Assembly (NCBI GenBank): GCA_965202875.1 | Contig: OZ241870.1 | Location: 3,693,069 to 3,757,068 of the forward strand | DNA: 64,000 bases | Direction of reading: 5' to 3' | DNA from: Gammaproteobacteria bacterium | GTDB lineage: Bacteria; Pseudomonadota; Gammaproteobacteria; HK1 | Part shown: positions 4,433 through 45,410 of the stretch, one piece after another | Position numbering within the stretch: position 1 is the first letter of the stretch | Layout: every line of letters begins with the position of its first letter | Position numbers and translations under genes: made by a program | The notes under the pieces: generated by a model | Seen by the model: only the letters and a program-made list of their open reading frames with translations | Database searches by the model: none | Told to the model about the DNA's origin: nothing

Positions 4433-5197
4433 GTGGACGTCGCAGGACACGCCGCCGTCGTCACCGGCGGTGGTTCGGGGATGGGAGCGGAGACCGCCCG
4501 CCGCCTCGCCGCGGCCGGTGCGAAGGTGGCGGCGCTGGATCTGGACGAGGGGGCGGCCGGCGCGGTCGGCGCGGAGATCGGCGGACTCGGCCTCGGCTGC
4601 GACGTCTCCGACGCCGGCGGCGTGGAACGCGCCGTCGCCCGCGCCCGCGCCGCCCACGGCTCCGCCCGCATCTGCGTGAACTGCGCCGGCATCGCGACCG
4701 CGCGGCGCATCCTCGCCCGGGACGGGCCGGCGCCGCTCGACGGCTTCCGCAGGGTCGTCGAGGTCAACCTGATCGGCACGTTCAACGTGATGCGGGTCTG
4801 CGCGGCGGGCATGGCGGGCCTCGATCCCGTGAACGAAACCGGTGAGCGCGGGGTCATGATCGCGACCGCCTCGGTCGCCGCGTACGAAGGGCAGATCGGC
4901 CAGGCGGCCTACGCGGCCTCGAAGGCGGGCCTTGCCGGGATGACCCTGCCGCTCGCGCGGGATCTCGCAAGCCTCGGGATCCGGGTGATGACCATCGCCC
5001 CGGGCTTGATGGAGACGCCGATGCTGGCCGGGCTGCCCGACGACGTCCGCGAAAGCCTCGCCGCCTCGGCGCCGTTTCCCCGCCGCCTCGGCCGTCCGGG
5101 GGAGTTCGCGGACCTCGTCGAGCACGTCGTCGCCAACGCGATGCTCAACGGCTCCGTCATCCGGCTCGACGGTGCGATCAGAATGCCGCCGAGGTGA
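4433..5197 (+). CDS. SDR family oxidoreductase (3-hydroxyacyl-CoA dehydrogenase-like)
   Basis: Rossmann 'AAVVTGGGSGMG', catalytic 'YAASKAG', 'PGLMETPM'. Start assigned to the first in-frame GTG (4433) after the upstream stop; no ATG precedes the Rossmann motif, so the start is uncertain. Confidence 0.7.
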   Translation: MDVAGHAAVVTGGGSGMGAETARRLAAAGAKVAALDLDEGAAGAVGAEIGGLGLGCDVSDAGGVERAVARARAAHGSARICVNCAGIATARRILARDGPAPLDGFRRVVEVNLIGTFNVMRVCAAGMAGLDPVNETGERGVMIATASVAAYEGQIGQAAYAASKAGLAGMTLPLARDLASLGIRVMTIAPGLMETPMLAGLPDDVRESLAASAPFPRRLGRPGEFADLVEHVVANAMLNGSVIRLDGAIRMPPR

Positions 5198-5524
5198 CGC
5201 GGGCCGGCGCTCGTTGAGCAGGCGTGCACGCGGGCCGGACCATCGGCCCGCGGTGTTGCCGCCACCCCCTTCCGCGCCGTCCGGTCGTCGGGCGCACATG
5301 GCGTCCCCGAACGACCTCGATTCTCCGGTCCCGTTTTCCGAGCGTCCGGCGAGCGCCGATCGGGGAGTGTGGAATGACGCTGCGCCAGCCTGCCGCCCCG
5401 CTTTACTGGCGGACTTCATGCTTTATCATTGGCCATGGCCCGGATTCGAGGGCAGTCTCGAATCCGAAGCGCGCTCAGGCCTCCGGCCCTCCCGAAGTGC
5501 GCCGCCCGCGGAAAGGAGGAGCCG

Positions 5525-7510
5525 ATGGCCGAAACAGACACCGCCGGGCCGGCTCGAAGCGACCCGAACGCGCTCGACACCTTTCCGAAGATCCTCGCCC
5601 TCAACGCCCGCCGGTTCGCGGATCGGCACGCGGCGCGCGAGAAGGAGTACGGCATCTGGCAGAGCTGGACCTGGCGCGAGCTCAAGGCGGAGGTGGAGGG
5701 GCTCGCCTGCGGTCTCGCGACGCTCGGCTTCGAGCGGGGGGACAAGCTCGCGATCGTCGGGCGCAACCGTCCGCGGCTCTACGGCTCGATGTGCGCCGCA
5801 CAGGCCCTCGGCGGGGTGCCGGTGCCGATGTACCAGGATGCCGTGGCGAAGGAGCTCCGGTTCGTGGTCGATCACGCCGGCGTCCGGTTCGCGATCGCGG
5901 AGGACCAGGAGCAGGTCGACAAGCTTCTGGAGTTGAAGGAGCAATGCCCATCGCTCGAAGTCATCCTCTACGACGACCCGCGGGGGATGCGCCACTACGA
6001 CCAGCCCTTCCTGCATTCGTATTCATCCGTCCAGGAGCGGGGCAAGGCATTCGCGCGGGACGACCCCGGCTACTTCGACGAGCAGATCGCGAAAGGCAGC
6101 GGCGGGGACGTCGCGATCATCCTCTACACCTCGGGCACCACCGGCAATCCGAAGGGGGTGATGCTCACCCATGACAACGTCCTCGTCACCGCGCGCAACG
6201 CGGTGGAGTTCGACGGGCTCGGGGCCGAAGACGAAGTGCTCGCATACCTGCCGATGGCGTGGGTCGGCGACAACATCTTCTCCTTCGGGCAGAGCTACGT
6301 GAGCGGGTTCTGCGTGAACTGCCCGGAGAGCGCGGCGACGGTGATGCAGGACCTGAAGGAGATCGGTCCGACCTACTACTTCGCCCCTCCCGCGGTCTTC
6401 GAGAACCTGCTGACCACCGTGAGCATCCGCATCGAGGACGCGAGCCGGATCAAGCGCAAGATGTACCACTACTTCATGGATCTCGCGAAGCGGGTGGGGG
6501 TCAGGATCCTGGAGGGTCGGCCGGTGTCGTTCGCGGACCGGCTCAGCTACCGGCTCGGCAGCCTGCTGGTCTACGGGCCGCTCAAGAACACCCTGGGCTT
6601 TTCGCGCATCCGCATCGCGTACACCGCCGGGGAGGCAATCGGCCCGGACATCTTCGACTTCTACCGATCGCTCGGCATCAACATCAAGCAGCTCTACGGC
6701 CAGACCGAAGCCTCGGTGTTCGTCACCATGCAGCCCGACGGCGAGGTGCGCGCCGACACCGTCGGCCGTCCCGCTCCAGGCGTGGAGCTGAGGATCGACG
6801 ACGTCAGCGGGGAGGTCCTCTACCGCAGCCCCGGCGTCTTCCATGCCTATTACAGGAACGAGGAGGCGACCCGGGAGACGAAGACCGAGGACGGCTGGGT
6901 GCATACCGGCGACGCCGGGCTGCTGGACGGAGACGGGCACCTGCGCATCATCGACCGCGCGAAGGACGTGGGGAGGCTCAACGACGGCGCGATGTTCGCG
7001 CCCAAGTACCTCGAGAACAAGCTGAAGTTCTTCCCCCACGTCGCGGAGGCGGTGACCTTCGGCCACGGACGCGACCACGTCTCCGCGTTCATCAACATCG
7101 ACCTCGACGCGGTGAGCAACTGGGCCGAGCGCAACGGCATCGTGTACGCGAGCTACCAGGAGCTCGCCGCGCATCCCCGGGTCTATGCCCTGATCGGGGA
7201 CTGCATCGCCCAAGTGAATGCGGATCTCGCGGGCGATCCGCAACTCTGCTCATCCCAGATCAAGCGCTTCCTCGTGCTCCACAAGGAGCTCGACGCCGAC
7301 GACGGGGAGCTCACCCGGACCCGCAAGGTGCGGCGCCGGACCGTCGCCGAACGCTACGCCCCGCTCATCGACGCCCTCTACTCCGGGGCCGACACCTGTC
7401 ACATCGACACCGAAGTGGTCTTCGATGACGGCCGCCGCGGCGAGATCAGCGCGGACCTGAAGATCGACGAGGCGCAGGTGTTCTCCGGCCCGATGGCGAA
7501 GGCGAGCTGA
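5525..7510 (+). CDS. AMP-dependent synthetase / long-chain acyl-CoA ligase family
   Basis: ATG 5525 preceded by AGGAGGA. AMP-binding motif 'ILYTSGTTGNPKGV', 'YGQTE' and 'GWVHTGD' motifs. This ligase type is commonly encoded next to LivGHMKF-type ABC systems. Confidence 0.85.
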   Translation: MAETDTAGPARSDPNALDTFPKILALNARRFADRHAAREKEYGIWQSWTWRELKAEVEGLACGLATLGFERGDKLAIVGRNRPRLYGSMCAAQALGGVPVPMYQDAVAKELRFVVDHAGVRFAIAEDQEQVDKLLELKEQCPSLEVILYDDPRGMRHYDQPFLHSYSSVQERGKAFARDDPGYFDEQIAKGSGGDVAIILYTSGTTGNPKGVMLTHDNVLVTARNAVEFDGLGAEDEVLAYLPMAWVGDNIFSFGQSYVSGFCVNCPESAATVMQDLKEIGPTYYFAPPAVFENLLTTVSIRIEDASRIKRKMYHYFMDLAKRVGVRILEGRPVSFADRLSYRLGSLLVYGPLKNTLGFSRIRIAYTAGEAIGPDIFDFYRSLGINIKQLYGQTEASVFVTMQPDGEVRADTVGRPAPGVELRIDDVSGEVLYRSPGVFHAYYRNEEATRETKTEDGWVHTGDAGLLDGDGHLRIIDRAKDVGRLNDGAMFAPKYLENKLKFFPHVAEAVTFGHGRDHVSAFINIDLDAVSNWAERNGIVYASYQELAAHPRVYALIGDCIAQVNADLAGDPQLCSSQIKRFLVLHKELDADDGELTRTRKVRRRTVAERYAPLIDALYSGADTCHIDTEVVFDDGRRGEISADLKIDEAQVFSGPMAKAS

Positions 7511-7543
7511 TGCCGGCCGCTCACGGATCCGCGGCCCCCGCTT

Positions 7544-7560
7544 GCGGGCGGGACGCCCGC
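7544..7560. repeat. REP-like perfect hairpin GCGGGCG-GGA-CGCCCGC immediately after the CoA-ligase stop
   Basis: 17-nt palindrome seen directly; near-identical copies occur at 33579-33595 (inverted), ~33640-33656 and 33759-33775. Confidence 0.5.
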
Positions 7561-7637
7561 ATTCCCAGGAGTCTGCGCCGTTCCCCGGATCGGAACCGAC
7601 CCTCGGTTCCGGCGGCGCCCGGACAGGAAGCGCACCG

Positions 7638-8813
7638 ATGAGCGAGCGGTCGACGGCAGAGCGGATCACGTTCCATGAAGGCCGGGAGATCCTCGAAGTC
7701 GACTTCTCGGCGCTGACCTTTCGCGGCGCCGCCGACGTCGACGCCTTCTACGACGAGGTCGAGGCGCGGCTCGGCGAGACCGGCTCCCGCTGGTACTTCC
7801 TCGTCAACTACGAGAACTGCGAGATCGCCCCCGAGGCGTGGGCCGCGTTCGCCGAACGCGGCAAGCGCGCGAACATCACCCACGGGCTCGGCGCCGCCCG
7901 CTTCGGCGTGAACGTGGAGGTGCGCGAGTCGATCCGCGCCCACGCGCAGAGCGCGCAGTTTCGCGCCAACCTGTTCGAGTCGCGCGACGCGGCGCTCCTC
8001 GCCCTCGCCGACATGCGCAAGCGCCACCAGACGGCCGGCGCCGCCTCGGCGGAGTCGTTCCTGAAGGTCGAGGACGTCCTGCTGCGCTTCGGCGGGGTCA
8101 CCGCGCTCGACAACGTCGGGTTCTCGGTGCATCCCGGGGAGGTGTTCTCGATCATCGGGCCGAACGGCGCCGGCAAGACCTCGATGCTGAACGTGGTCAG
8201 CGGGTTCTACCGGCCGACGAGCGGGCGCATCCTGTTCGAGGGCCAGGATCGGACGCACCTGAAGACGTTCGAGGTCGCGCGGCTCGGTTTCGCCCGGACG
8301 TTCCAGAACATCGCGCTGTTCCGGGGGATGAGCACCCTCGACAACATCATGACCGGCCGGCTCCTCAAGATGAAGTACAACTTCCTCACCGACGCCCTGT
8401 ACCTGGGCCCCGCGCAACAGGAAGAGATCCGGCACCGGGAGTTCGTCGAGCGCATCATCGACTTCCTCGAGATCCAGGCGATCCGCCGCACCCCGGTCGG
8501 GAAGCTGCCGTACGGGCTGCAAAAGCGGGTGGAGCTCGCCCGCGCGCTGGCGATGGAGCCCAAGGTGCTGCTCCTCGACGAGCCGATGGCGGGCATGAAC
8601 CTGGAAGAGAAGGAGGACATGGCCCGCTTCGTCCTCGACGTGAACGACCAGTTCGGGACGACCGTGGTGCTGATCGAGCACGACATGGGGGTGGTCATGG
8701 ACATCTCCAGCCACGTGGTGGTGCTCGACCACGGCGTGAAGATCGCCGAGGGGACCCCGGACGAGGTGCGCAACGATCCGGTCGTGGTCCGTGCCTACCT
8801 GGGGGAAGGGTAG
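7638..8813 (+). CDS. ABC transporter ATP-binding protein, LivG-like, with ~150-aa N-terminal extension domain
   Basis: ATG 7638 with AGGAAG RBS. The C-terminal 250 aa carry Walker A 'GPNGAGKTS', signature 'LPYGLQKRVELARAL', Walker B 'LLLDEP' and the LivG-typical 'LIEHDM'. The N-terminal 150 aa ('ERITFHEGREILEVDFSALTFRGAADVDAFYDEV...') have no ABC motifs. Confidence 0.8.
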   Translation: MSERSTAERITFHEGREILEVDFSALTFRGAADVDAFYDEVEARLGETGSRWYFLVNYENCEIAPEAWAAFAERGKRANITHGLGAARFGVNVEVRESIRAHAQSAQFRANLFESRDAALLALADMRKRHQTAGAASAESFLKVEDVLLRFGGVTALDNVGFSVHPGEVFSIIGPNGAGKTSMLNVVSGFYRPTSGRILFEGQDRTHLKTFEVARLGFARTFQNIALFRGMSTLDNIMTGRLLKMKYNFLTDALYLGPAQQEEIRHREFVERIIDFLEIQAIRRTPVGKLPYGLQKRVELARALAMEPKVLLLDEPMAGMNLEEKEDMARFVLDVNDQFGTTVVLIEHDMGVVMDISSHVVVLDHGVKIAEGTPDEVRNDPVVVRAYLGEG

Positions 8814-8844
8814 GAGCGAAGGGCGGGCGGGGACGAACGGAGCG

Positions 8845-10068
8845 ATGCCGCCGATGATGGAAGAACTTCTGTTTTTCTTCGAGGTGCTGCTCGGCGGGTT
8901 GCTGACCGGCATCATGTACTCGCTGGTCGCGCTGGGCCTCGTGCTGATCTTCAAGGCGTCCCAGATCTTCAACTTCGCGCAGGGCGCCTTCGTGCTGTTC
9001 GCGGCCCTCACCTTCGTGCTGATGCTGGAGGTCGGGCCGGGCTTCTGGAGCTGGACCGGGTGGCTCGCGGTGGCCTTCGCGCTGCTCGCGGCGGGGATCT
9101 GGGGGCTGCGGCGGTACACCACCGTGCTCGACGCACCGAAGCGGTACGGCCGTACCCCGGTGGTGATCGCGGCGCTCGCCGTGGTGCTGCTGCCGGTCCT
9201 GTTCGACGGCGGCCAGCCGATGTGGCGGGCGATCTTCATCGTCGAGCTGACCTTCCTGATGCTCACCGTGGGGGCCCGTACCCCCAACTGGGCTGCCGGT
9301 GTCCTCCTCGGCCTCGCGGTAGCCTGCTTCTTCCTCGACGAGGCGATGCTGTGGCGCGCGCTCGCGCTGACCCTGCTGGTGATGATCATGATGGCCATCG
9401 CCATCGAGCGGATCGTGCTCCGCCCGCTCGTCAACCAGGAGCCCATCATCCTGTTCATGGCCGCGATCGGGTTGAACTTCGTCATCGAGGGGGTGGCGCA
9501 AGGGGTGTGGGACGCCGACGTGCACGCCCTCGACATCGGCATCCCCGACGTTCCCATCGCCTGGCTCAGGGAGAGCGTCGGCCTGTTCATCAGCGTTTTC
9601 GACGTGGTGGCGGCGGTGACCGCGGCGGCGCTGGTGGCCGCGCTGGCCTGGTTCTTCAACAAGACCCGGGTGGGGCGCGGGCTGCGCGCGGTGGCCGACG
9701 ACCACCAGGCGGCGCTCTCGGTCGGCATCCCGCTGAAGAACATCTGGGCCGTGGTGTGGTCGGCCTCGGCGATCGTCGCGCTGTTCGCGGGCCTGATGTG
9801 GGGGTCGAAGCTGGGGGTGCAGTTCTCGATCGCGCTGCTCGCGTTCAAGGCCCTGCCGGTGATCCTGATCGGGGGGTTCACCTCCATCCCCGGCGCGATC
9901 GTCGGCGGCCTGATCGTCGGGTCCACGGAGAAGCTCTTCGAGATCTACGTCGGGATCCCCTTCTTCGGCGGAGGGACCGAGAACTGGAGCCCGTACATGC
10001 TCGGGACGCTGTTCCTGCTGGTGCGCCCGCAGGGGCTGTTCGGGGAGAAGATCATCGAGCGCGTGTGA
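8845..10068 (+). CDS. branched-chain-type ABC transporter permease, LivH-like (enlarged, ~407 aa)
   Basis: Highly hydrophobic; N-terminal 'LLTGIMYSLVALGLVLIFKASQIFNFAQGAF' and C-terminal 'GIPFFGGGTENWSPYMLGTLFLLVRPQGLFG' match the LivH family. An extra ~100-aa hydrophobic insert is present. Confidence 0.8.
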   Translation: MPPMMEELLFFFEVLLGGLLTGIMYSLVALGLVLIFKASQIFNFAQGAFVLFAALTFVLMLEVGPGFWSWTGWLAVAFALLAAGIWGLRRYTTVLDAPKRYGRTPVVIAALAVVLLPVLFDGGQPMWRAIFIVELTFLMLTVGARTPNWAAGVLLGLAVACFFLDEAMLWRALALTLLVMIMMAIAIERIVLRPLVNQEPIILFMAAIGLNFVIEGVAQGVWDADVHALDIGIPDVPIAWLRESVGLFISVFDVVAAVTAAALVAALAWFFNKTRVGRGLRAVADDHQAALSVGIPLKNIWAVVWSASAIVALFAGLMWGSKLGVQFSIALLAFKALPVILIGGFTSIPGAIVGGLIVGSTEKLFEIYVGIPFFGGGTENWSPYMLGTLFLLVRPQGLFGEKIIERV

Positions 10069-10128
10069 CGCGCCGCCGCCATGCGTCGGGGATCCATCGG
10101 CCATTTCAGGGACGGGAAGAGATAGGCA

Positions 10129-11256
10129 ATGTTTTATCGCGAAGCAGGCCAGTTCAAGACCACGTACGCGAGCGACCAGGCGATCTTTCCCATTCGCCAG
10201 GACTACTGGTTCGTGATCGGGCTCGTGGCGTTCGCGTGCGTCGTCCCCCCCCTCACCGGCTCGCAGTACCTGATGGGGCCGATCCTGACCCAGTTCCTCG
10301 TGTTCGGGCTGGCCGCGCTGGGGCTGAACCTGCTCACCGGCTACGCCGGGCAGATCTCGCTGGGCACCGGCGGATTCATGGCGGTAGGCGCCTACGCCTG
10401 CTACAACCTCGTCCTGCGCCTGCCCGAGATCCCCTTGATCGCCAGCTTCATCCTCTCGGGCCTGTTCGCCGCGCTGGTCGGAGTCCTGTTCGGGCTGCCT
10501 AGCCTGCGCATCAAGGGGTTCTACCTCGCGGTCACCACGCTCGCCTCGCAGTTCTTCCTGCTCTGGCTGTTCGACCACGTCGGCTGGTTCACCAACTACG
10601 ATCCGGCGGGGGTGGCCTCGGCGCCGACCACCACGCTGTTCGGCCGGCTTGCCGAAGCCGGGGGGCCGCTCGACTTCCTCGCTCCCGTCAACGTCCTGGT
10701 GTCCGGGCCCCAGGCGACGCCGGAGGTCAAGTACCTCGTCACCCTGGCCGTCGTCGTGGTCCTCACCCTGCTCGCCAAGAACCTCGTGCGCAGCGCCACG
10801 GGACGCGCGTGGATGGCGATCCGGGACATGGACATCGCGGCCGAGATCATCGGCGTGCGACCCCTGCGCACCCGGCTGGTCGCGTTCGCGATCAGCTCGT
10901 TCTACTGCGGCGTCGCCGGCGCGATGTACGTGTTCACCTACGTCGGGAACGCGGACACCGAGGCGTTCGACCTCATCCGCTCGTTCAACATCCTGTTCAT
11001 GATCATCATCGGCGGGCTGGGCAGCATCATGGGCTCCTACCTCGGCGCCGCGTTCATCGTGCTCCTGCCGGTGGGGCTGAACGTCTTCGCCTCGACGGTC
11101 ATGGGCGGGACGCTGTCGGGCGACGTGCTGGCGAACCTGGAGCTGATCGTGTTCGGCGGCGCCATCATCTTCTTCCTCATCGTGGAGCCGCACGGCTTCG
11201 CAAGGCTATGGCAGATCGCGAAGGAGAAGCTGAGGCAATGGCCTTTTCCGTATTGA
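10129..11256 (+). CDS. branched-chain-type ABC transporter permease, LivM-like
   Basis: 375-aa multi-TM protein with 'GYAGQISLGTGGFMAVGAY' and 'RIKGFYLAVTTLA' motifs characteristic of LivM. Confidence 0.85.
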   Translation: MFYREAGQFKTTYASDQAIFPIRQDYWFVIGLVAFACVVPPLTGSQYLMGPILTQFLVFGLAALGLNLLTGYAGQISLGTGGFMAVGAYACYNLVLRLPEIPLIASFILSGLFAALVGVLFGLPSLRIKGFYLAVTTLASQFFLLWLFDHVGWFTNYDPAGVASAPTTTLFGRLAEAGGPLDFLAPVNVLVSGPQATPEVKYLVTLAVVVVLTLLAKNLVRSATGRAWMAIRDMDIAAEIIGVRPLRTRLVAFAISSFYCGVAGAMYVFTYVGNADTEAFDLIRSFNILFMIIIGGLGSIMGSYLGAAFIVLLPVGLNVFASTVMGGTLSGDVLANLELIVFGGAIIFFLIVEPHGFARLWQIAKEKLRQWPFPY

Positions 11257-41654: not shown

Positions 41655-42381
41655 CCCCGTTTCCCGGATCGCCTTCTTCCGTCAGCCGGTGGAACGCGGG
41701 TGCGAGCCGGCCACGTTCATCCATGAGCCGGGCGGGGACCTCGTCGGCGACGATGCGGCCCCGTGCGATGAAGATGGCGCGGGTCGCAATCTCCTCCGCC
41801 TCTTCGAGGACATGCGTCGAGAGCAGGATCGCCTTGTCCCGCGACACTTCCTCCCGGAGCAGCGCGCGGATGTGGCGCCGCTCGGTCGGGTCGAGGCCGT
41901 CGGTGGGCTCGTCGAGGATCAGCGCCGGCGGATCGTGCAGAAGCGCCTGGGCGAGCCAGGCACGCTGGCGCCAGCCCTTGGACAGCTCGCCAAGGAGCGC
42001 GCCGCGGGCGTCCCCGGCGTGCACCCGCTCGGTGACGCGATCGACCGCTGCACCGAGGGCCCGCCCGGTGAGGCCGCGCGACTCGCCGCAGAAGCGGAGG
42101 AACTCGTCGACGGTCAGTCGGGAGAACCCCGCCGCCGCTTCGGGCAGGAACCCGACCGAGGCCGCGGCGGCCCGCCGCCCGGCGATGACGTCGTGACCGT
42201 TGACCCGCGCGCGGCCTTCCAGGGGACGAAGGACGCCGGTGAGCAGCCGCATGGCGGTCGACTTGCCGGCGCCGTTGCATCCGAGGAGCGCGCATAGTTC
42301 GCCGTGCCCGACCCTGAACGACAGCCGATCCACCACGGCCCGCGGGCCGAAACGCATCGTGAGCCCGAGCGCTTCGATCAT
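41635..42381 (-). CDS. ABC transporter ATP-binding protein (ABC-2 / GldA-like)
   Basis: Walker A 'GCNGAGKST', signature 'LSKGWRQRAWLAQAL', Walker B 'LILDEPTDGLD'. Confidence 0.85.
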   Translation of the reverse strand: MIEALGLTMRFGPRAVVDRLSFRVGHGELCALLGCNGAGKSTAMRLLTGVLRPLEGRARVNGHDVIAGRRAAAASVGFLPEAAAGFSRLTVDEFLRFCGESRGLTGRALGAAVDRVTERVHAGDARGALLGELSKGWRQRAWLAQALLHDPPALILDEPTDGLDPTERRHIRALLREEVSRDKAILLSTHVLEEAEEIATRAIFIARGRIVADEVPARLMDERGRLAPAFHRLTEEGDPGNGDDREPR

Positions 42382-42539
42382 CGCTCCCTCGGCCGCCGCG
42401 CACCCCCGTCCGCCACGGCGGGCCGGCGCGTTGCTCCCGCCTTCCCCTCCGGGCGCCCGGCCGATTTGCCCGTTGATCCCGCTGATGTCATAGTGGCGGC
42501 GTCTTCCACCCGATGGAGCGCGGAAGGGAGGGCTGGGGA

Positions 42540-42977
42540 ATGCTGACCCGTCAGGACTGGCTCCTGCTTGCGCTGTCGAAATCGCCGGACGGCCGAATGA
42601 GCCCCGTCCAGATCCAGAAGGCCCTGTTCCTGTTCGGCCAGGAAGCCGGCGACCTGATCGGCACGGAATTCTACTCCTTCAAACCCTACGACTACGGCCC
42701 CTTCGACGCGGCGATCTACGACGATCTGCGGCGGATGAAGCGCGAGGGTCACGTCGCGGATGAATGGCGGCCCGGCCGAAGATGGAAGAACTACATGATC
42801 ACCAAGTCCGGCCAGAACGCCGCGCTCGGTCTCGAGAAAGACGCCGAGGTCCGGCTCGCCGACTTCATCGGGCGCATCGTCGAATGGGTCAAGGTGCGGT
42901 CGTTCTCCGATCTTCTCCGCAGCGTCTACGCCGCCTACCCGGACTTCGCGGTGAACAGCGTGTTCCGTGGAGGATGA
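42540..42977 (+). CDS. Panacea (DUF4065 / SocA / GepA)-like domain protein with possible C-terminal winged-helix
   Basis: 'SPVQIQKALFLFGQEAGDLIGTEFYSFKPYDYGPFDAAIYDDL' fits the Panacea pattern (KLQKLLY...W.YGPV...Y). The C-terminal 'EGHVADEWRPGRRWKNYMITKSGQ' resembles a PadR/wHTH wing. Assignment is from motif memory only. Confidence 0.5.
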   Translation: MLTRQDWLLLALSKSPDGRMSPVQIQKALFLFGQEAGDLIGTEFYSFKPYDYGPFDAAIYDDLRRMKREGHVADEWRPGRRWKNYMITKSGQNAALGLEKDAEVRLADFIGRIVEWVKVRSFSDLLRSVYAAYPDFAVNSVFRGG

Positions 42978-43225
42978 CCGGGCGCCTCGCCGGATGGATC
43001 GAGGGGCGGTGTTCTCCGGGTCTTCTTCGGCGACGGCGCGCCGCGCTTCCCCTGCGCGTCCGGTCTTGACGGTGGGCGGCGCGTTCCGCGACGGACGATC
43101 GCCCGTTCCCCGGGGGTATCGCCGGATGGATCAAGGGAGGATCATCCACTGAACCCTCTTCTGCGACGTCCCCGCCGCTCCGCCCCTTGTCCGGGCTTCA
43201 CGGCGGGCGGCAGGTTCCACGGCAC

Positions 43226-43993
43226 ATGACCGTTCTCGTCGGCATCCTGGCGAGCGACGGCGCGGCGATCGCCGCCGATCGGCAGGTCACCGCCGGGCAC
43301 GTCGGCATCCCGATGCCCAAGATCGCCCCGATCGGGGGCGACAGCCTGGTTGCGTCCAGCGGCTCCCTGGCCCTCGGGCAGAAGATTCAAATGGTGTTCG
43401 AAACGCATCACGCCGACCTCAAGACCCACAGCTACAACGAGCACCTGCCGGCGATCGAGCAGGCAATCCGCGGCATCGTGACCCCGGCGATCCAGATGGC
43501 GGAAAAAACCAGGTACGTGATCCCCGGCGCCGAAAACAACGCGCTGGCTTCGTCCCTGGCATGTATTCCCTTTGCGGACGGCCTTCGTCTGTGCCACATC
43601 GACTGGGACGGTTCCATCCACTGCCTGAACGAACACCTTCCCTACGTCACGGCCGGCTCCGGCAAGGTGAACGCGGATCCCTTCATCCGATTCATCTGGG
43701 ACGTGTTCTGGCCCGATCCGGGCCATCTTCCTCCGCTCCGCGAGGCGGCCTTTGCCGCGTACTGGACGGTGCAGATGAACATCGAGCACAGCTCGGTGGG
43801 CGTCGGCATCGGCGTCGACGTGTGGACGGTCAACCACAAGGCCGACGGCGGCTACGTCGCCGAGGAAATGGACTGGGAGCGGCTCGAGCCGCCCGATGAA
43901 TTCATCGAGAGCATGAAGCAGGCCATGCGCGCGCAACGCGACCGGACGTTCGGCAACAAGGACGGGCCGGCGGAAGCGCCGCCGAAGCTGTAG
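43226..43993 (+). CDS. proteasome-like N-terminal-nucleophile (peptidase T1 / HslV-Anbu-BPH-like) hydrolase
   Basis: Starts 'MTVLVGILASDGAAIAADRQVTAG': Thr immediately after Met, an Asp ~17 residues on, a Lys ~31 residues on, and 'GGDSLVASSGSLALGQ', as in proteasome beta/HslV active sites. 255 aa. Confidence 0.6.
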   Translation: MTVLVGILASDGAAIAADRQVTAGHVGIPMPKIAPIGGDSLVASSGSLALGQKIQMVFETHHADLKTHSYNEHLPAIEQAIRGIVTPAIQMAEKTRYVIPGAENNALASSLACIPFADGLRLCHIDWDGSIHCLNEHLPYVTAGSGKVNADPFIRFIWDVFWPDPGHLPPLREAAFAAYWTVQMNIEHSSVGVGIGVDVWTVNHKADGGYVAEEMDWERLEPPDEFIESMKQAMRAQRDRTFGNKDGPAEAPPKL

Positions 43994-44273
43994 AGCGAGC
44001 GGAGGGAGCCGCGGCGAAGCCGCACGCCGCCGCCGGGCAACCCGAGGCGCCGTTCCGTGCACCGCATCGTCCGCGAAACGTAGCGCCGGCGGTCGAATGC
44101 CACCCCCTCCCCCGGGTAACGGCCCTCTCGTCGTTCCCGCCCGGGACTTCGACGGCCTGATCCGGACCCTGCGGCGGTCGGCATGAACCGGGCCGCTCGA
44201 CCGGGGCGGTTCGCCTCCGGTGAAGAGCCGATTTTCCGGGATGCGGATTGGCGACAGGGGGCGCTGCACCGCA

Positions 44274-45410
44274 TCAGGGGCGATATCGGCGCAGGGCGTT
44301 CGCCGGGATCCTGCGCGGCAACCCCTTGCGATGGATCTTGAGAAACGAGGCGGGCGCCTCGTGGGCGATGCGCCAGATGCCGTCGCCATCCTCGATCCAG
44401 TACTGCCACCAGCGTCCGCCGCCCGCCCACGCGGCGCGGAATTCCACGAGCGCCATGGCCGTTTCCTGCCCGGAGCCGACCGGATAGCCGTACATGCCGA
44501 GGCCACGATTCGCGGTGCCGCTCCCGCCGAAACGCTCGATCCGGGCCCGCCATTCGGCCCGGTGCCGCTCGTGATCGGCCGGAGCCATCCAGCGCATTCG
44601 TTCGGCGATGACGACGGGGACGCTTTCCTGTCCGATCGTCCGTTTCAGAGTCTCCAGCGCCGGATTCGAGACGACGAGACAGCCCCCGCTCCAGCGAGGG
44701 GCGCGGCTCGTGAGGCCCCGAGGCTCGCCGTGGATCCAGATCCCGTAACCGGTGCGCCGCCGGCGCCGGTCCCATCCGTTGGGATAGTTCAATCCGAGGC
44801 TGCCTGCTCCGTAGAACTCGGGCAGGGCCCGGCTCTCCACCTGCATGGTCACGAAGTACACCCCGAGCGGGGTCTTCCCGTCACCCTCGCGATGCTTGCC
44901 GGTCCCGCCCCAGCCGGTGGAGGCGTACCAGTCTCCCTTCTTCGTCCAGCGCCCGTCGGACCATTCGAACAGGTACAGGCGCGCGCGGGCAGCGTCTGCG
45001 CCGACCACCACCGTGCGGTCCGGGGCAGCCTCGATCAGGACGTCCGGGAGGGCGTCCGATGGTGGACGGTCGAACCAGTAGGAGAGCCGGGCGTACGCTT
45101 CGCTACGCGGCCTCTTCATCGCACTCGACTCGTCGCGGGGGGTCAGATCGAGCAGCGCCGCGGCGAGATCTCCGGTGCGCAGCAACGACGCCTGGACAAG
45201 GTACGATGCGAGGAAGGCGGGGTATCTCTCGGTGACGCGGTTCAGCTCGTTCAGTCCGCCGGTGCGATCCCCTGCCTGGTAGCGGTCGAGGGCTGCGAAC
45301 AGAGCCGCCTCGTGGGCGTCCGTCTCGATCTCCGTCTCGACCGTTGCCGCCGGCTCGGCCAGAAGGAGCATCACGGCGCCGAGGGCAAGGCGGGCAACGC
45401 GCGCTGTCAC
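44274..45410 (-). CDS. L,D-transpeptidase (YkuD domain) with signal peptide
   Basis: YkuD catalytic region 'GYGIWIHGEP...RWSGGCLVVSNPALETL' (His...Cys). Signal-like 'VTARVARLALGAVMLLLAEPAATVE' from GTG 45410. The upstream part of the 521-aa ORF is non-protein-like. Confidence 0.7.
   Translation of the reverse strand: MTARVARLALGAVMLLLAEPAATVETEIETDAHEAALFAALDRYQAGDRTGGLNELNRVTERYPAFLASYLVQASLLRTGDLAAALLDLTPRDESSAMKRPRSEAYARLSYWFDRPPSDALPDVLIEAAPDRTVVVGADAARARLYLFEWSDGRWTKKGDWYASTGWGGTGKHREGDGKTPLGVYFVTMQVESRALPEFYGAGSLGLNYPNGWDRRRRRTGYGIWIHGEPRGLTSRAPRWSGGCLVVSNPALETLKRTIGQESVPVVIAERMRWMAPADHERHRAEWRARIERFGGSGTANRGLGMYGYPVGSGQETAMALVEFRAAWAGGGRWWQYWIEDGDGIWRIAHEAPASFLKIHRKGLPRRIPANALRRYRP

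Follow-up and report, generated by a model that had tools for sequence, protein, structure and literature searches.

The stretch of DNA analysed in this study, hereafter the window, comprises 64,000 nucleotides (nt) of contig OZ241870.1 (GenBank assembly GCA_965202875.1, positions 3,693,069 to 3,757,068 of the forward strand), from a genome labelled Gammaproteobacteria bacterium. It carries two genes, encoding a small winged-helix protein (gene 1) and a protein of the proteasome family (gene 2), for which a first-pass annotation, made by a model from the letters alone, had proposed a conflict or toxin-antitoxin role. The two co-oriented open reading frames (ORFs) that it delimited on the forward strand are both real and have a codon bias typical of the genome (GC content at third codon positions of 0.85 for gene 1 and 0.87 for gene 2, in a window of 69% GC). 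The motifs it quoted are present in both proteins, and the flanks are those it described, namely a divergent ABC exporter operon (ABC_tran and ABC_transp_aux) upstream and a convergent YkuD L,D-transpeptidase gene downstream. Its statement that gene 1 lies immediately upstream of gene 2 stood as regards order and strand and failed as regards adjacency, since a spacer of 248 nt (42978-43225), on which it made no comment, separates the two genes.

The start of gene 1 was placed at 42540 because its orthologues are 145 amino acids (aa) long and open with the residues MLTRQDW; an alternative upstream ATG at 42513 receives no support from them, and 171 close homologues have the length of 145 aa. 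For gene 2 the ATG at 43226 (MTVLVG...) was preferred over a TTG at 43187, as a Met, Val or Leu followed by Thr opens 127 of the best 144 family representatives. Both genes are under purifying selection, with ratios of nonsynonymous to synonymous substitution (dN/dS) of 0.17-0.30 for gene 1 and 0.13-0.23 for gene 2.

The product of gene 2 exceeds the gathering score of the Pfam proteasome family PF00227 (25.9 bits against a cut-off of 22.4), and its N-terminal half matches the PHROGs entry 'peptidase HslV family'. An exhaustive profile search at E ≤ 1e-3 returned a family of 796 clusters (50% identity), whose members are nearly all 250-270 aa long and matched end to end. In an alignment of 40 of these sequences with identities down to 24% (A6), residues T2, D18, G46, G144 and P253 are the same in every sequence, and at least 90% of the sequences keep K32 and G146, K32 being invariant in a further alignment (A4). 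Residues T2, D18 and K32 (1, 17 and 31 in mature numbering), G46 and G144-S145-G146 correspond to Thr1, Asp17, Lys33, Gly47 and the GSG positions of the proteasome, and a propeptide is absent. The AlphaFold2 (AF2) model of the protein (pLDDT 93.9, pTM 0.90) carries the alpha-beta-beta-alpha sandwich fold of N-terminal nucleophile (Ntn) hydrolases and the full beta-subunit topology with a long C-terminal helix. Foldseek matched this model to proteasome beta subunits, Anbu and Mycobacterium tuberculosis PrcB (TM 0.54-0.67, E about 1e-12, probability 1.00), and the A6 profile retrieved beta subunits (E 5e-10) and HslV (E 5e-7) from the PDB. Gene 2 thus appears, from alignment and model, to encode an active proteasome-family hydrolase without a propeptide and with an intact catalytic site. 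The T1-type fold and the Thr/Asp/Lys arrangement that had been read from the single sequence were borne out, both by the confident proteasome beta/Anbu-type prediction and by the retention of the triad across the family of roughly 800 clusters.

Two further features of this family deserve mention. The invariant P253 stands near the extreme C-terminus ('...PPKL'; 43982-43990, residues 253-255), after a poorly conserved linker, and this ending could serve as a docking tail. On a terminase-bearing contig (L024/L025, 877-1657) the proteasome-like gene is broken into ORFs of 71 and 199 aa, which could be due to a frameshift or a sequencing error, or could mark a pseudogene.

The pair is obligate. 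Loci were retrieved by means of gene 2 alone, so that the sampling was independent of gene 1, and all 94 of the 94 loci found in this way have, immediately before gene 2 and in the same orientation, a homologue of gene 1. This holds for species-representative genomes (10 of 10, 54-85% identity), for IMG/VR viral contigs (10 of 10, 25-32%) and for metagenome contigs with at least 440 nt of upstream sequence (74 of 74), which represent a different subfamily. The metagenomes were scanned with a subfamily alignment (A10), the broad A6 alignment having no stretch conserved enough for this use. Six metagenome loci were truncated, and five of these still show gene 1's 3' part. The gap between the two genes ranges from -4 to +37 nt across the sampled loci, with a single exception of 157 nt. 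Outside the window, only two related loci depart from an arrangement in which the genes share 4 nt or are separated by no more than a few bases. When gene 1 homologues at 46-56% identity were instead collected by protein identity, they again preceded a proteasome-like gene, at sites as different as the interval between mnmE and mnmG, the side of a phage terminase gene and the side of an insertion sequence (IS) transposase gene. The recurrence of a Panacea-type or winged helix-turn-helix gene upstream of gene 2 homologues, which the first-pass annotation had offered as a check of its proposal, was therefore found throughout.

No third gene accompanies the pair. Among 281 ORFs flanking about 79 loci none recurred, be it HslU, a proteasome alpha subunit, an Anbu partner or any other gene; no ATP-grasp, transglutaminase-like or alpha-E gene was present among the annotated neighbours, and no HslU gene was found beside the pair in the window. 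The absence of these partners, asserted earlier from the window alone, extends to the sampled loci. The contexts are variable, mobile and partly defence-associated, and do not resemble the housekeeping operons of Anbu or BPH type. Restriction and BREX genes (HsdR, two Type IIG/I restriction-modification enzymes and BrxL) were found beside the pair, as were genes for a DNA methyltransferase, nucleases and an IS transposase and ordinary housekeeping genes. In viral contigs the neighbours include genes for the large terminase subunit TerL (L029), a major capsid protein (L035), a P22-type portal protein (L033) and a terminase (L024). A tblastn search with the window's gene 2 and the protein P0233 gave no match among PLSDB plasmids. 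Taken together, these contexts suggest that the pair is a self-contained, horizontally mobile cassette of bacteria and phages.

One locus, L001, shares the ABC-transporter flank of the window; the other side of its pair (4866-10710), absent from the window, contains a cluster coding for PLDc_2, Schlafen AlbA_2/HATPase_c_4, SMC-like AAA and PLD-SNF2 helicase proteins that looks like a defence island.

The assignment of gene 1 required more weighing. Its sole Pfam match is PadR (PF03551), with E 1.3e-4 and 22.3 bits against a cut-off of 27, over residues 57-94 only, and its score against TIGR03433 is 18.8 for a cut-off of 101.8. In an alignment of 28 family sequences with identities down to 30% (A8), weak sub-threshold matches to PadR occur in 17 relatives, and weak sub-threshold whole-protein matches to PF13274 (SocA_Panacea, DUF4065) occur in seven (best E 2.1e-4); a more distant relative (L057) reaches 21.3 bits for PF13274 against a cut-off of 25.7. 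A tblastn search revealed homologues on haloarchaeal plasmids (27-35% identity over 81-98% of the protein, E down to 2e-10), four of eight of which NCBI names 'type II toxin-antitoxin system antitoxin SocA domain-containing protein'. PADLOC matched gene 1 to the N-terminus of PDC-M19A (E 3.9e-15), to residues 167-251 of DarG (E 0.0026) and to a C-terminal add-on of some HsdS proteins.

The structure of gene 1 was predicted from a separate alignment (A7), and the AF2 model (pLDDT 91.9) contains a canonical helix-wing unit. Its top PDB matches are chains D (E 3.9e-4) and B (E 1.2e-3) of entry 7yk3, with TM 0.59-0.60 over about 158 columns, which are the only ones near or below E 1e-3; structures of MarR and PadR follow at E > 0.02, and a BFVD protein labelled 'SocA-like Panacea domain' ranks ninth (E 0.033, TM 0.52/0.58). 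Chains D and B of 7yk3 are the DarT-binding C-terminal domain (CTD) of DarG. Chain 7yk3_B was also the top PDB match of the gene 1 family profile, but with E 0.44. The invariant GPF of gene 1 aligns with 'GRYGPY' of that chain, and the GPV motif, whose position it occupies, is described as the Panacea signature and as critical for neutralisation (PMC8832971). Proteins with DUF4065 are moreover homologous to the DarG C-terminal domain, according to a 2026 paper (PMC13621843).

On these comparisons of sequence and predicted structure, gene 1 is best described as a family of its own in the winged-helix superfamily of Panacea and DarG-CTD, and not as a formal member of PF13274. The label 'Panacea-like' given to it by the first-pass annotation is fair because of the relatives with sub-threshold PF13274 matches, the SocA-annotated homologues, the DarG-CTD top match and the invariant GPF; formal membership of DUF4065 fails at the gathering score. 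A conserved N-S-V/I-F-x-x motif closes the protein (42954-42977, residues 139-145; alignment A8), 2-3 residues from the C-terminus, and is loosely reminiscent of the hydrophobic-aromatic tails of proteasome activators. The same motif is kept in relatives paired with DUF2335 proteins and may simply belong to the core structure.

The association between the two genes is asymmetric. Gene 2 turned up only in the company of gene 1; proteins resembling gene 1 do occur with other partners. One of these is a DUF2335 membrane protein, in whose company the gene 1-like protein has an extra tail of 63 aa. Another is DUF488, to which the gene 1-like domain is fused in the PADLOC candidate PDC-M19A, matched over its full length (1.9e-78) by locus L055. 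That fusion lies at 2071-3045 of L055, and PDC-M45B and PDC-M45C also match its DUF488 part. Further arrangements comprise a fusion to an uncharacterised C-terminal domain, a gene 1-like gene with an ORF of 111 aa following, and tandem paralogues. On haloarchaeal plasmids, helix-turn-helix (HTH) proteins adjoin the gene 1-like proteins; in two cases (L060, 2207-3399; L062, 714-1903) an overlapping gene for an HTH-domain protein of about 245 aa precedes a gene 1-like protein annotated as 'SocA-domain' or 'PadR'. This is another recurrent pairing of the gene 1-like domain, in archaea.

An exchange of partners can be followed at a single chromosomal site. Loci L004 and L020, from sister genomes, are collinear: their mnmE flanks and their mnmG flanks show 76-77% DNA identity. 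Between these flanks L004 (5847-7163) carries a gene 1-like gene with DUF2335 and L020 (4904-6205) a gene 1-like gene with a proteasome homologue, and the two cassettes can be aligned over the first 168 nt of gene 1 only. The mnmE-mnmG interval may be a hotspot of integration or recombination. An effector that is never alone and a partner that is promiscuous make up the pattern of toxin-antitoxin systems, and the co-directional overlapping genes, the patchy mobile distribution and the exchangeable partners seen here are traits of such systems.

The spacer of the window can be traced to the junction between the two genes. Relatives have ATGA or GTGA where gene 1 ends and gene 2 begins, and the corresponding ATG of the window, at 42972, opens only a remnant ORF of 32 codons (42972-43070), which reads MTGRLAGWIEGR... 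and is a decayed copy of gene 1's GRIVEWVKVR. Two decayed copies of a repeat unit of about 110-130 nt, lying in tandem, make up the spacer; the unit takes in gene 1's 3' end together with the ATGA junction. Unit 1 aligns locally to 42860-42980 with a score of 37, where shuffles average 9.8 (z 15.9), and contains the direct-repeat families D1, D2 and D4; unit 2 gives z 12.8 when compared with gene 1's 3' end and z 19.9 when compared with unit 1. The same 248-nt arrangement is found in locus L058 (spacer at 522-769; gene 1 98% identical), a single unit of 124 nt (858-981) in L059 (gene 2 89% identical), and no unit in any other locus. Copy numbers of 0, 1 and 2 among close relatives form a small evolutionary series in which the two ORFs become uncoupled. 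An origin of the spacer in the insertion of a miniature inverted-repeat transposable element or an IS was rejected because of the homology to gene 1's 3' end and of the one-unit intermediate in L059. A structured RNA or riboregulator in the spacer was likewise discarded: Rfam applied to 42200-44400 found no family in the spacer and one chance match to a eukaryotic long non-coding RNA, and the spacer has no excess of RNA structure (folding z -0.09).

Because the tandem duplication broke the junction, gene 2 would now be translated from a weak, independent start of its own. Judged from the nucleotide sequence, translational coupling appears to have been lost in the lineage of the window, where the spacer probably lowers the ratio of effector to partner. 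A comparison of the two lineages that carry the spacer still shows purifying selection on both genes (dN/dS 0.16-0.18).

Table 1. Positions of the gene pair and its landmarks in the window
Feature	Position	Strand	Description
Gene 1	42540-42977	+	145-aa Panacea/DarG-CTD-like winged-helix protein; putative antitoxin or sensor
G53-P54-F55 codons	42696-42704	+	Invariant in A8; occupies the place of the Panacea 'GPV' signature, F replacing V
ATGA, ancestral stop/start junction	42972-42975	+	Relatives end gene 1 and begin gene 2 here, with ATGA or GTGA
Spacer unit 1	42978-43109	+	Tandem copy, now decayed, of the final ~110 nt of gene 1 with the beginning of gene 2
Spacer unit 2	43110-43225	+	Second decayed copy; its end leads into the functional ATG of gene 2
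Gene 2	43226-43993	+	255-aa proteasome-family N-terminal-Thr hydrolase; putative effector or toxin
Thr2 codon	43229-43231	+	Predicted catalytic nucleophile after removal of Met1; invariant in A4 and A6
Asp18 codon	43277-43279	+	Proteasome Asp17; invariant in 40 sequences down to 24% identity
Lys32 codon	43319-43321	+	Proteasome Lys33; at least 90% of A6, invariant in A4
G144-S145-G146 codons	43655-43663	+	Proteasome GSG loop; G144 invariant, G146 in at least 90% of A6

A scan of 42250-44350 for sigma-70 promoters and terminators yielded no promoter and one terminator at chance level, and is uninformative in a genome of 69% GC. The taxon labels of the window's close relatives (loci L006-L018) conflict: one NCBI metagenome-assembled genome (MAG) is named Defluviicoccus sp. 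(Alphaproteobacteria), and syntenic genomes, with proteins 80-85% identical, are labelled Gammaproteobacteria or Thiotrichales. Many ENA records of these relatives carry study-style prefixes (PANK22-1, NGUY21-1, ROBB21-1).

From this evidence we infer a toxin-antitoxin or conflict function, in the form of a type II toxin-antitoxin-like or abortive-infection module with a protease as its effector, a reading for which we judge the chances to be slightly better than even. According to this model the product of gene 1 would be made first and, in the ancestral arrangement, its translation would be coupled to that of gene 2; it would bind the product of gene 2 and hold the hydrolase inactive, and would probably repress the operon as well by way of its winged helix. 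The Thr1 hydrolase, having neither a propeptide nor an AAA+ partner, would be competent once Met1 is removed and the protein is assembled. Loss, titration or triggering of the gene 1 product, for example upon phage infection, would then free the hydrolase, which would cleave cellular or phage proteins and so stop growth or phage replication. Observed of the pair are the homologies of both proteins, an active site that is intact, a pairing that is obligate, contexts that vary and are mobile, and an exchange of partners; the physical binding, the inhibition, the toxicity and the trigger are our inference.

Several observations weigh against such a module. A protease of 255 aa that is probably oligomeric would be an unusual toxin. 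Defence genes make up only about a quarter of the sampled neighbours, and in the window's own clade, with genomes of 4-6 Mb, the pair is largely syntenic and vertically kept, a retention that would also fit a beneficial housekeeping role. The co-occurrence without exception fits an obligate two-subunit enzyme equally well. The first-pass annotation had held that a gene 1 resembling only a PadR-type regulator, with no DUF4065/Panacea hit, would speak against its proposal, and this is literally what Pfam returned for the window's protein, with no match to PF13274 at E ≤ 1; with gene 1 below that threshold, its winged helix could simply be that of a repressor. The other computational checks that the annotation proposed came out in its favour. 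Finally, the spacer uncouples the genes and neither has been lost, which is more easily understood if the pair is not a tightly balanced poison and antidote.

In a rival explanation, the product of gene 1 helps the protease, as an adaptor for substrates, a gate or an assembly factor, and takes the place of the missing alpha ring or AAA+ cap. Together the two proteins would form a dedicated machine that degrades particular targets, for instance phage proteins or, if a phage carries the pair, defence proteins of the host. Complete co-occurrence and coupled translation are what one expects of stoichiometric subunits, and since no unfoldase or alpha subunit recurs near the pair, some other specificity factor would be needed. 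A precedent exists in the Panacea-domain protein SocA, a proteolytic adaptor that brings SocB to ClpXP (PMC8832971). The purifying selection on the pair in a syntenic chromosomal clade is in keeping with this role, as is the strong conservation of both C-termini, the NSVF-x-x of gene 1 and the Pro motif of gene 2. The specificity of an adaptor for a protease does not, however, explain why gene 1-like domains join unrelated partners that are not proteases (DUF2335, DUF488, HsdS); the solved structure nearest to gene 1 is an inhibitory domain, and the swap of the protease for a membrane protein at one locus resembles an exchange of effectors. On balance we consider an adaptor unlikely.

Gene 1 might also be a PadR/MarR-type repressor of a stress or housekeeping protease, acting with no neutralisation between the proteins. 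This is suggested by PadR being the only Pfam family matched by the window's protein and the one most often matched, if weakly, by its relatives, by the canonical helix-wing unit, by the position of MarR and PadR structures next after DarG in the fold search, by an isoelectric point (8.9) compatible with DNA binding and by the housekeeping genes that flank the pair in the window. All PadR matches stay below the gathering score, however, and the residues that are invariant in gene 1 are the GPF and an aromatic core, not basic residues of a recognition helix. Pairs of regulator and target are rarely conserved without exception, with overlaps of 4 nt, across identities of 25-90% and in phages, and the fusions of the gene 1-like domain to enzymes and HsdS also speak against a mere regulator. 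We regard a mere repressor as quite improbable.

A phage morphogenesis function, with a prohead or scaffold protease and its chaperone and with the bacterial copies as prophage remnants, would account for the head and terminase genes next to the pair in viral contigs but is highly improbable, given that most loci have no phage genes nearby and unrelated neighbours, that the position within the head module varies, and that none of 50,697 isolated phage genomes yielded a relative in tblastn with three queries (the window's gene 2, the L034 homologue and P0233).

Apart from HslV and the 20S proteasome of actinobacteria, the proteasome homologues of bacteria are, to our knowledge, functional orphans. 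One such family now gains its first fixed, translationally coupled partner, from the Panacea/DarG-CTD antitoxin superfamily, and what was an unknown protease becomes the subject of a precise two-gene hypothesis on inhibition, trigger and substrates. A proteasome-family hydrolase is a class of putative effector without known precedent for a Panacea-type module. If the toxin-antitoxin or abortive-infection reading is true, it would add a new effector class to the biology of toxin-antitoxin systems and phage defence. The pair also offers a natural example of a proteasome-like protease controlled without an ATPase. More tentatively, and with less than an even chance in our estimation, the whole family of about 800 clusters (50% identity) might be the effector arm of a prokaryotic immune or addiction system in which a Panacea-like protein, as gate and sensor, replaces the ATPase cap. 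This would be the first case of a proteasome-family protease serving as a toxin or abortive-infection effector; a phage-borne pair could instead be a counter-defence degrader.

Among known systems, the C-terminal domain of DarG in DarTG (7yk3) gives the top structural and profile match to gene 1 and has in common with it a QxQK...F.P..YGP block. The DarG domain binds and inhibits its toxin directly. Gene 1 differs in having no macrodomain, in an identity of only 16-18% and in its partner, which is a protease and not an ADP-ribosyltransferase. The PanA-PanT type II toxin-antitoxin systems (Kurata et al. 2022, PMC8832971; Ernits et al. 2023, PMC10440598) are similar in layout, with a small upstream protein of Panacea-type core and GP-x motif, a coupled downstream effector in a compact overlapping gene pair, many unrelated partners for one core, and an occurrence on chromosomes, plasmids and phages. 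The present pair departs from them in that gene 1 lies under the PF13274 threshold, its PadR-like wing is more distinct and its C-terminus carries two additional helices, and in that its partner is a proteasome-family hydrolase of 255 aa. Such a partner is not mentioned in those portions of the main texts and supplements of the Panacea and NetFlax papers (PMC8832971, PMC10440598) that were accessible. In agreement with the earlier belief that no Panacea-protease pair had been described, the literature searched, an incomplete coverage that leaves the newer defence catalogues outside, contained no description of the pair or of a related link to PDC-M19, defence or antitoxins. PADLOC v2 has no model for the proteasome-like family (five members scanned, no match). 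The N-terminal 125-130 residues or so of its candidate PDC-M19A are homologous to gene 1; PDC-M19A is, however, a fusion to DUF488.

As for gene 2, membership of the HslVU, Anbu or 20S systems was ruled out because the partner genes are absent. The RPC and AAH subfamilies, which have no helix H2 or no C-terminal helix H5, do not fit the gene 2 model with its H1, H2 and C-terminal helix, a comparison made by description only. The closest likeness is to Anbu, BPH and the 22 subfamilies of orphan proteasome homologues (PMC8665760), which share with gene 2 the beta-like fold, Thr1/Asp17/Lys33 and Gly47 and the lack of a propeptide and of an AAA+ partner; Anbu has the long C-terminal helix as well, and some of the orphan homologues are, like some members of the gene 2 family, phage-borne. 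In their 2021 survey, Fuchs, Alva and Lupas (PMC8665760) reported no conserved genomic context for any of the new subfamilies. The gene 2 family differs from them in that it has no Anbu operon partners and is accompanied by an invariant upstream partner.

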